Below, in pieces: positions 3,001 to 6,000 of a stretch of DNA of 8,105 nt; position 1 is the stretch's first letter; each line of letters starts with the position of its first letter. Made by a program: the position numbers. Where the stretch lies: the IMG/VR virus record IMGVR_UViG_2654587685_000008; one strand, 5' to 3'. This DNA comes from a virus (lineage: Duplodnaviria; Heunggongvirae; Uroviricota; Caudoviricetes).

Positions 3001-6000
3001 CATAAATCTCATCGATTTTATGTTTGCATGTTTCTGATTGTGATGTATTTAAAATGGCTCTTTCTCCTTGGGTACAGGAGTTTATAACTTCTTTCAGTAT
3101 TTGTTTTTGGTCTTCTGGGGATGTTCTTTGTCCATTGAATGCGTAAGATATCCTGTCTTTTGTTTTGAAAAGTGGCATGGTTATATTTTTTGTATGCTGG
3201 AGGTCAACACAAAGAGCTATTGCCTGAGTATTTAGTATGTCCGGATTATGGGAGTAAGTTGATCTTTTCAAAGCATTAGCACTTGCTGATGCCCCTTCAT
3301 ATGGATTTTGATGAAATAATAGATTTAGTATGTTTACGATGAATAAAGACATCATTTGTGGTGGTGTGCCTTTCTCAAGAGAGCGCATGATTGCTCCCGA
3401 TAAAGAGGACATCAGACTTAATCCTTGTGTTAATACCCGCTGGGTGGTTTTAAAGGCCGCTTCTTGCGATATAAATCTCTGAGCAGAATTTGGGTTATCA
3501 GAAGAACCATGTTTATAAGCTTTATACCATGAGTCACCTAATATAGCTAAGGCCAATGGTATATCAGCATAACTCACTCCCCTACCTATAGTTCTTACTA
3601 TGCTACCTGTTTTAACTGCTCCATTAAGCATTAACAGTGGTGACATGGTTAGTAATGTACTTGTTAAACATAGAGTAAATCGTGCTATAACCGAACCTGT
3701 TATTTTTTTATTACTTATACAATACTTAACTTCATCTATTAGTTTAGGATATTGATAGAATATTGTTGGTGCATGAAATAAAGTTGCTGATAGTAAATCA
3801 CCAAGTATGCGTACCTGGGTTATATCTAGTGATAATACATTACTTAAGAATGCTTCTGTATTTATTGTTGGAGAAGGTGATGTATATAAAGATGGTTGTT
3901 GAGACTGTGAAGGTGATTTGTTATAGTCGCCATTAAAAAATAATGCCTGTATGAGCAAGTGAATGCTGATTCCGCCTCCGGCTCTGAACGCATATGGAAG
4001 TATCTGTTCGATTTTATTGTGTATGGCCATATAGGCTTTATAAAAACATCCTGACTGATTATATACCTGATGATATTGATCGTTCAGAACTCTCATAAGA
4101 TGGAGAACAGTTTCTGCACTCTCATTCTCTTTTGGTATAATTTCATGAATGATGCTGTCTAGTTGATATTTTTGCTTGCATGTTAGGATTTTTGTAATTC
4201 TTTCATCGATTTCAATGCATATTGAATTATTTTTATCGGATAATAACAAATCATTTTCCTGTGTATTTGTTTGTATCTCTTGTGGGATATTAATTACCAC
4301 ATCCGTACATGTTCTATCCACCTCATTTGTCTTTATGTTGTCAAGAAAATCATTTAACGTCAGTTGAGAACCCAATTCATTAATGTAGTCCAATGATGAC
4401 GTAGAAGAGCTATTATCAAGAAAATCGTTCAGAGTGAGCTCGGAGTCGTTTCTTGTTATCGGATATACATTTGTGGAAGCGGCTAATTTAATACTCCGGT
4501 TGCTGGAGGTAGAAGCTGTTGGTTCAGAGGTTGACGAACACTGCATGTCAATGCATACATAACCTTTATTTGAAGTTGAATTTGGAATCAAGTTTCCTCC
4601 TGAATTAATGGTTTTCCATAATACTAACTATTGATAAAAATATTTTGCATTTCATTAAAATAAAAAATCCCATGGAAAATATTTTTTGTTAGTTATTACA
4701 TACAGCACATCAGGTCGTCAATATAGTCTAACTATAGTTATCACTAAAAACTTGCCTCGATTTTAGATTTTTCCAGTATTTGTAGATATTGCACTGAACA
4801 CCGAATACGTAGCAGAGGGTGTCTACACGATAACGTGCTATGAGCTACCATGTTGTCGAAAAATTGTTTAGTGAGTATGACATCAGGAATGTGGTGGTCT
4901 GTTTTAATATTTCTATTTCTATTTCTATTTCTATTTCTATTTCTATTTCTATTTCTATTTCTATTTCTATTTCTATTTCTATTTCTATTTCTATTTGTTG
5001 TGATTTTTCTTTAGTTCATGTATTTCGATTTGTTTCTGAATTATCGGGGGTAGTGTCTTCCCTTTTCCCTGAGGCTTATCATGCAGTTATTTTCGCCATC
5101 TTGGTATTGTGGAAATACCGACATCCATAGCTTTGGTGAGCTCTGTTCAGGTGGCCAAATTCAGAAAACCATTACGGAGGAAGAAGGCGATGGCTAAACC
5201 AGCGCGAAGACGATGTAACCGTAAAAGAGAAGATTTAACTGTTAAAAGGATATTTGAGTTACTAAGTTTCGATAAATCTACCGGGGTATTTAGATGGAAA
5301 GTTCCCACTCAGGGAAGGATAGCATTAAATAGTGTTGCTGGAACTTTTGATTCCAACGGTTATTCAATGATCATGATAGATGGGCGTAGATATAAAACTC
5401 ACGTCTTAGTTTTTTACATAACTCATAATCGTTGGCCTGCTGGTCAAATTGACCACGTTAATGGAATTAGGACCGACAATAGGCCAGAAAATTTAAGAGA
5501 ATGCCTGCCAATAGAAAATTCAAGAAATATAAGGATCCGAAAGAATAGCAAATCAGGTTGCAGAGGGGTTACTTGGCACAAACGACAGAAAAAATGGAAT
5601 GTTAGGCTAGGATTCCATGGCAAGAGTAAACACTTCGGATGCTTTGATGATCTGGAGTTAGCGGTACTAGTTGCTGAAGAAGCCCGAGATAAGTATTACG
5701 GTGATTTTTCCGGCAACGAAAGGAGCACTTATGCGAATCTATCGAAGGAAATGTAAATGTTGCAATGAATGGTTTATACCAAAATATCAAAATCAATATT
5801 GGTGTAATGAGATTTGTGGAACCAAGATAGCACTCGAACGACGAAGTAAAGAACGCGAAAAAGCGGAAAAAGCAGCAGAGAAGAAACGACGACGAGAGGA
5901 GCAGAAACAGAAAGATAAACTTAAGATTCGAAAACTCGCCTTAAAGCCCCGCAGTTACTGGATTAAACAAGCCCAACAAGCCGTAAACGCCTTCATCAGA

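Follow-up and report, generated by a model that had tools for sequence, protein, structure and literature searches.

How does an endonuclease gene come to open with the first codons of ninG, and how does ninG remain complete once its own start has been taken over? The question is posed by an 8,105-nucleotide (nt) stretch of a Caudoviricetes virus (IMG/VR record IMGVR_UViG_2654587685_000008), hereafter the window, which is a lambdoid nin region with 98.9% identity to the Stx1 phages AU6Stx1 and SH2026Stx1 over 5004-6000. In this region an open reading frame (ORF) for an HNH-AP2 endonuclease begins with MAKPARRRC, and ninG restarts in another frame shortly before the endonuclease stop. An earlier interpretation (the sequence-only reading) had proposed a homing-endonuclease-type insertion into the first codons of ninG that duplicated the target motif and supplied a replacement translation start. 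Here we present comparative evidence that the event is better described as the exchange of part of ninG for foreign DNA carrying a diverged ninG 5′ end of its own, and we weigh the accounts of how this DNA arrived, among which the homing of a free-standing endonuclease gene is the likeliest.

A 596-bp cassette in place of 64 nt of ninG

The graft is composed of the following elements (aa, amino acids; GC, fraction of G and C).

5173-5218, plus strand: lambda-type remnant of 42-46 nt, aligned base for base to lambda and mEp234
5190-5756, plus strand: chimeric HNH_3 + AP2 endonuclease ORF, 188 aa, assigned by Pfam and PHROG 99
5208-5248, plus strand: imperfect 20-nt direct repeat, AGACGATGTAACCGT-AAAAG / AGAAGATTTAACTGTTAAAAG, straddling the left junction
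5219-5814, plus strand: foreign cassette, 596 bp, GC 0.376, not in lambda
5721-5725, plus strand: AGGAG Shine-Dalgarno sequence of the new ninG start, inside the 3′ coding end of the HNH ORF
5731-5814, plus strand: cassette-borne ninG 5′ end, 84 nt, 28 codons and the first base of C29, which is the final N-terminal Cys
5731-6333, plus strand: complete ninG (rap), 200 aa, lambda-type from 5815

The left border of the cassette lies within the old ninG. The 29 nt at 5190-5218, which encode MAKPARRRC and a further 2 nt, match the ninG start of lambda and mEp234 exactly and are identical in hundreds of lambdoid phages, so that lambda-type ninG did originally begin with this string, as had been supposed. 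Ahead of 5190 lie ~14 nt from the 3′ end of ninF, with identity to lambda and mEp234 from ~5177 in anchored alignments. The remnant as a whole holds the last ninF codons (stop TAA 5195-5197), a GGAGG Shine-Dalgarno sequence (5176-5180) and the 29 nt of ninG, and the ninF stop overlaps the ninG start in the ATGGCTAA arrangement that is present both in the window and in phages with a complete ninF. Identity to lambda is lost after CGATGTAA (5218) and regained at TGTGGAACCAAG (5815), beyond which the two sequences are identical for at least 120 nt. The empty site expected at the 5′ end of ninG is found there in alignments to insert-free lambdoid phages, with its left border at 5218 and its right border at 5815. 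Between these borders the cassette occupies the place of codons 10-31 of lambda-type ninG (NC_001416 42461-42524), and an empty and a filled allele differ nearby only at the two junctions and in the 64 bases that were replaced, the flanks being identical to lambda. The sequence-only reading was right to place the insertion in the first ninG codons; the duplication of a target motif has to be given up, since 64 nt were replaced and the second start belongs to a foreign homologue that is ~55% identical.

The 20-nt repeat at the left junction is one of just two arrays reported by Tandem Repeats Finder in the 8.1-kb window, the other being a (TATTTC) microsatellite. In addition, lambda ninG nt 19-29 (AGACGATGTAA) and cassette positions 5228-5238 (AGAAGATTTAA) match at 9 of 11 bases. 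The repeat may represent microhomology that guided the left crossover, or a duplication that arose from repair. A promoter and terminator scan of 4500-6400 gave nothing above shuffled expectation near the cassette.

The HNH ORF runs from ATG 5190 to the stop TAA 5754-5756 and is a composite. Its codons 1-9 are derived from ninG and its residues ~14-175 constitute the homing-endonuclease body, whose GC is 0.39 versus 0.49 in the rest of ninG. Pfam HNH_3 (PF13392) matches residues 68-107 with 42.7 bits against a cut-off of 24.8, AP2 matches residues 123-171 with 22.2 bits (E 1.8e-4), under its cut-off of 33.3, and the PHROG 99 'HNH endonuclease' match has an E-value of 1.4e-71; the gene already carries an HNH endonuclease annotation in public records. 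In alignments with 9-10 distant homologues, residues D88, H89, N97, R98, N101 and N110 never vary, and they include the DH...N...N catalytic/metal motif. The combination of an N-terminal HNH and a C-terminal AP2 domain is described, in a passage of PMC10448857 that cites Magnani et al. 2004, as a homing-endonuclease family of protists, cyanobacteria and phages. In our searches the homologue family comprises 41,346 representatives at E<=1e-10, and the window protein is 40-48% identical to many of them.

Structural comparison, aimed at the ββα-metal fold of His-Me finger endonucleases and at the AP2 fold of a three-stranded sheet and a helix, gave mixed scores. The AlphaFold2 (AF2) model has a predicted local distance difference test (pLDDT) value of 82.7 overall and of 55 for residues 1-10. 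Its best Foldseek match among solved structures is I-HmuI (PDB 1u3e; probability 0.98, a weak E-value of 1.1e-2, TM 0.36, 17% identity). The C-terminal part superposes on the AP2 domain of AtERF1 with a root-mean-square deviation of 1.2 Å over 51 columns (probability 1.0, with weak E-values), and the AP2 domains of WRI1 and TEM1 and of apicomplexan proteins are also among the Foldseek matches. A sequence search of solved structures returned just one marginal AP2 match.

The start of the ORF shows that its N-terminus is borrowed. Free-standing homologues of 160-180 aa have residues 2-4 aligned with query residues 15-18 and their Met1 at query 14-17. Because these homologues begin at residues 14-17, the ~13 extra N-terminal residues, the first 9 of which are ninG, are not native to the HNH protein. 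No in-frame ATG, GTG or TTG is present between 5190 and 5367, the position of the next in-frame ATG, and judged by the reading frame ATG 5190 is the sole in-frame start giving the conserved N-terminal region. In the window the frame is open upstream to GTG 5109, which would give 215 aa, whereas in prophages that keep all of ninF stop codons close this frame 12-13 codons before the HNH ATG. Public annotations of the start disagree: the AU6Stx1 record uses a GTG 39 nt upstream (201 aa) and RefSeq PGAP uses ATG 5190.

At the other end of the cassette, ninG is supplied with a new beginning. Its ATG (5731-5733) follows AGGAG after a 5-nt spacer, and the first 26 nt of ninG, read in another frame, are shared with the end of the HNH ORF. 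The HNH ORF, the ninG restart, AGGAG, the 26-nt overlap and the change of frame are thus all present as the sequence-only reading had described them, and the insert does provide ninG with a Shine-Dalgarno sequence and an ATG of its own. The substitute 5′ end has a GC of 0.286 and ~55% nucleotide identity to lambda, and is a homologue of ninG codons 1-31. The N-terminal Cys motif is kept, C8/C11 and C25/C29 of the window NinG aligning with lambda C9, C14, C28 and C32. The resulting NinG is intact and full-length: its match to PF05766 spans positions 5-192 of the 193 in the profile and scores 281.9 bits.

This 5′ end and the endonuclease gene occur together. Sensitive blastn recovered the AT-rich ninG 5′ segment only from the two HNH-positive phages, and a tblastn search of phages with the 34-aa N-terminus found the nearest other NinG N-terminus at 58-60% identity. 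A 40-aa N-terminal query against a large protein collection returned E. coli fragments only, and in none of the 538 E. coli carriers does the match span less than 80% of the cassette. Across the E. coli genomes, the phages and the large protein collection, the AT-rich ninG 5′ segment was not found without the HNH gene.

Distribution of the cassette and accounts of its origin

The cassette is a presence/absence polymorphism of lambdoid prophages. Of 5426 complete E. coli genomes, 538 have it at >=99% identity, in every case on the chromosome and with at most 3 copies per genome. Four of the 324 phage records that match the flanks carry it, representing two sequenced phages, and it is absent from the remaining 320 and from lambda. 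About 450 further E. coli genomes match the ninF-ninG junction only, and among the matches listed all end at 5218. Salmonella Infantis is also named as a carrier by one source. Given its absence from these phage records and junction-only genomes, the HNH gene is an insertion rather than an ancestral neighbour of ninG, and with MAKPARRRC being the ancestral ninG start both premises of the proposed insertion stand.

Within carriers, the cassette is near-invariant while its flanks vary. Diversity, computed on 40 unique haplotypes from 57 loci, is ~0.005 across 5200-5800, 0.02 just downstream and up to 0.14 by the end of ninG. The left flank is either of the type found in the window, where an AT-rich island lies upstream, or one of at least five 30-nt ninF 3′ haplotypes, and these five occur both where the cassette is present and where it is absent. 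The right flank is one of at least six 60-nt ninG haplotypes, which likewise also exist without it. The nearest variable site on the left is 3 nt upstream of the ATG, ~32 nt from the border at 5218/5219; on the right, a C/A single-nucleotide polymorphism (SNP) at 5823, 8 nt from the border, segregates in both cassette-positive and cassette-negative classes. A near-invariant cassette in shuffled flanks is the pattern expected if empty alleles were converted again and again, each time with a short co-conversion tract. Of 62 copies of the HNH ORF, 60 are intact, the exceptions being one frameshift and one IS3 insertion. In E. coli PK8241 (L004:3550-4763) an IS3-family element lies just after the window equivalent of 5725, the end of the ninG Shine-Dalgarno sequence within the 3′ part of HNH, parting HNH from ninG and altering the HNH C-terminus.

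We therefore favour, as the probable explanation, the arrival of a free-standing HNH-AP2 homing endonuclease gene together with a co-converted and probably cleavage-immune piece of donor ninG. The source would be an unsampled AT-rich lambdoid relative in which the HNH gene lies just upstream of ninG, and the block moved (5219-5814) would consist of the HNH body and the first 84 nt of the donor ninG. Its right end would have joined within the conserved TGTGGAACCAAG stretch of ninG and its left end after nt 29 of the recipient ninG, probably via microhomology. Because the left join is in frame, translation of the endonuclease would start at the former ninG ATG, with the former ninG ribosome-binding site, and that of ninG at the ATG that came with the donor, behind its AGGAG and 26 nt ahead of the HNH stop. 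The predicted enzyme would cut or nick HNH-free ninG alleles in or beside the 64-nt segment that is missing from its own allele, repair would copy the cassette into the cut allele, and the recoded ninG 5′ end, whose divergence from the empty allele beside the insertion is a prerequisite of self-immunity, would make the carrier immune to its own enzyme. From sequence, then, we infer the homing activity of the HNH protein, its targeting of the lambda-type ninG 5′ end and the immunity conferred by the recoded segment.

Several observations weigh against this explanation, and some of them favour an alternative in which the HNH gene and the alternative ninG 5′ end were acquired once, as a block, by illegitimate or homeologous recombination and have since spread by descent and ordinary homologous recombination, the nuclease playing no part and perhaps being inactive on the site. 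First, 519 of the 538 carriers (96%) share the island-type upstream context, so that much of the abundance of the cassette reflects descent within prophages of the type found in enterohaemorrhagic E. coli (EHEC). Second, the flanking SNPs show all four gametes among themselves and are only weakly linked to each other and to the cassette. Because neighbouring SNPs are shuffled among themselves, the four-gamete and haplotype test does not separate homing from ordinary recombination, and ordinary lambdoid recombination alone could yield the shuffled flanks. Third, purifying selection is weak: the variable sites in HNH comprise 11 synonymous and 11 non-synonymous changes, with single-copy changes at invariant positions (N97T, N101S and P83T), some of them catalytic, which suggests weak constraint on the gene. 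Weak constraint is common among homing endonuclease genes. Fourth, many carrier genomes have a second left-junction match on the same chromosome. These matches could be empty junctions persisting in co-resident prophages, in which case conversion would be inefficient in lysogens.

The search for a donor also tells against homing from a relative. A word-indexed search of 5.8 billion proteins found no HNH relative between 48% and 99% identity; exhaustive HMMER comparison with 1.84 billion representatives gave a best match of 48% outside the protein's own 99% cluster, and no donor; and the sole match in GTDB species genomes was a 39% identical protein from Planctomycetota, again no donor. IMG/VR holds copies at 99-100% and relatives at 33-38%, and the donor was not found there.

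Even so, we consider passive acquisition possible but unlikely. It has to accommodate a near-invariant cassette amid at least five left and six right flank haplotypes that exist without it, with segregating SNPs as close as those described above on either side. It offers no particular place for the intactness of nearly all the ORFs, for the membership of the protein in a family described as homing endonucleases, or for a second HNH-AP2 cassette only 75 bp away (see below).

Domestication is a further and distinctly improbable account, in which the HNH gene would be kept for the benefit of the phage rather than by self-propagation, either by cutting the ninG region of HNH-free lambdoid rivals, a form of marker exclusion, or in cooperation with the junction nuclease NinG/Rap. 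The intact ORF in 60 of 62 copies would fit such a role, as would its position embedded in the delayed-early nin operon, where it uses the ninG initiation signals and overlaps ninG, and the many lambdoid prophages that reside together in EHEC strains. Most lambdoid phages nevertheless lack the HNH gene, the sequence constraint is weak, and marker exclusion is in practice one side of homing rather than a separate mechanism; no member of the HNH-AP2 family is known to act as a NinG partner.

That the gene was simply inserted with duplication of its target site, or belongs to an intron or intein of ninG, is scarcely credible: ATGTAA does recur at 5213-5218 and 5751-5756, homologous ninG positions that bracket the HNH-specific part, and removal of 5219-5756 would leave ninG in frame, but the two 'copies' are only ~58% identical, the 64 nt of lambda-type ninG are gone, and splicing from 5218 to 5815 would remove the Cys-rich N-terminal motif. 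A group I or II intron is ruled out by the lack of any Rfam match at E<=1 in 4600-6400, and an intein by the lack of a Pfam Hint domain and by the HNH ORF being out of frame with ninG.

The ninF-ninG junction and its surroundings

A different HNH-AP2 gene, which has no counterpart in the window, occupies ninF in E. coli 14EC007 (NZ_CP024131.1, L005:2912-3418). The gene is intact, encodes 168 aa that are 32% identical to the window HNH protein, and also belongs to PHROG 99; PGAP calls it a partial pseudogene, though the ORF is complete. Its insertion point, ~75 bp before the first cassette, separates ...VCE(H)C from CAELMSD..., and it supplies an AT-rich ninF 3′ end (..CERCIYECLNMVEHNEKYKQHRRIKK followed by the stop), with the old ninF 3′ end left as a remnant. 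This second gene is found in 45 of the 5426 E. coli genomes, including E2348/69, and in NZ_AP027599.1 it adjoins a ninG junction that is empty of the first HNH gene. Because a second, different HNH-AP2 cassette with its own substitute gene end lies ~75 bp away, the junction appears to have been invaded repeatedly, which points to ninF-ninG as a recurrent landing site of the HNH-AP2 family.

The rest of the window is organised as follows.

17-592: P
589-879: ren
1160-1612: ninB
1609-2136: N6-adenine methyltransferase gene
End at 2315: ninE
2316 to ~5172: AT-rich island, GC 0.34, separating ninE from the ~14 nt that remain of ninF
2819-4591, minus strand: 590-aa ORF of the island
4908-4996: perfect (TATTTC)x14.8 microsatellite, inside the AT-rich island
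6330-6995: Ser/Thr phosphatase gene
6992-7615: Q

In the E. coli carriers outside the 519 with the island context, and in 22 of the 57 IMG/VR copies, the same chimeric HNH gene directly follows a complete ninF. Because these prophages keep a complete ninF before the same HNH, the HNH event preceded the island, which on this comparison is a separate and later event that removed all but ~14 nt of ninF. The 590-aa island ORF matches only PHROG families of unknown function (9230, 14900 and 13344) and has zero Pfam matches. In relatives, ungapped identity to the window ends at or within the (TATTTC) array at a variable distance, which suggests that the copy number of the array varies among them.

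Downstream, ninH is missing from the window, where the Ser/Thr phosphatase gene directly follows ninG. It is present in other HNH carriers, the ETEC1730 and AU6Stx1 prophages, and from this comparison the presence or absence of ninH is a matter of backbone mosaicism downstream of the cassette.

Relation to known homing endonucleases

In its overall design the window HNH protein resembles the HNH-AP2 homing endonucleases of phages, cyanobacteria and protists mentioned above: an N-terminal HNH_3 and a C-terminal AP2 domain in ~160-190 aa, encoded by an AT-rich free-standing ORF in a phage genome. It departs from them in taking its first 9 codons from the host gene ninG, and in interrupting the coding sequence of a gene in a temperate lambdoid phage rather than lying between genes of a lytic phage. 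Related genes of T5-like and Jersey-like phages carry the annotation HNH homing endonuclease, and no close relative of the window protein, above 48% identity, was found.

Among free-standing homing endonuclease genes, the T4-type segF, segG and mobE co-convert the markers beside them; SegG and SegE appear in the reference list of PMC10448857. The cassette shares with them the presence/absence polymorphism at a fixed site, an endonuclease allele that differs beside the insertion, and a donor-type flank that travels along, whereas here one crossover lies inside the neighbouring gene and creates an in-frame fusion that supplies the endonuclease start codon. Seg proteins are GIY-YIG and Mob proteins HNH enzymes, and the cleavage sites of the T4-type enzymes have been mapped by experiment; the window HNH, in contrast, is known from sequence.

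A further parallel is Aeromonas phage Aeh1, in which mobE reportedly splits nrdA (Friedrich et al. 2007), the two polypeptides reassembling. In both cases a free-standing HNH gene interrupts a coding gene of its host with neither intron nor intein, and the function of the host gene is preserved, as judged for NinG by its sequence. Unlike nrdA, ninG stays whole, the cassette bringing a complete substitute 5′ end.

I-HmuI, the best structural match, is an intron-encoded HNH nicking homing endonuclease of the Bacillus phage SPO1. It is elongated, the nuclease forming the N-terminal part and a DNA-binding module the C-terminal part, and so is the window HNH in the AF2 model. I-HmuI differs in having a helix-turn-helix DNA-binding domain instead of AP2, and in being encoded within an intron.

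In the literature that we searched, no paper ties ninG or ninF to this HNH gene, and none deals with free-standing homing endonucleases in lambdoid phages. The architecture of the graft thus appears not to have been described previously in the searchable literature, and the gene itself belongs to a known kind of mobile gene rather than to a new system. For annotation, the N-terminus of the HNH protein and that of the adjacent NinG are products of recombination junctions and should not be read as native.

A bolder proposition, which we put forward tentatively and regard as rather doubtful, is that the cassette actively homes and is made for intragenic landing with no need of an intron or intein, by taking over the ribosome-binding site and start codon of its target and delivering a recoded, cleavage-immune gene end. 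If this is true, the second cassette in ninF, with its substitute 3′ end, would be the mirror image of the first, and together they would point to a general 'graft-and-replace' strategy in temperate phages, with the lambda ninG 5′ end (42461-42524) as a defined target. If the enzyme is active, lambda would provide a system for the study of intron-less homing in temperate phages and between co-resident EHEC prophages, one that offers a 64-nt candidate target and ready empty and filled alleles. With borrowed start signals and a spare gene end, a selfish nuclease gene may be tolerated inside a coding gene at little cost.

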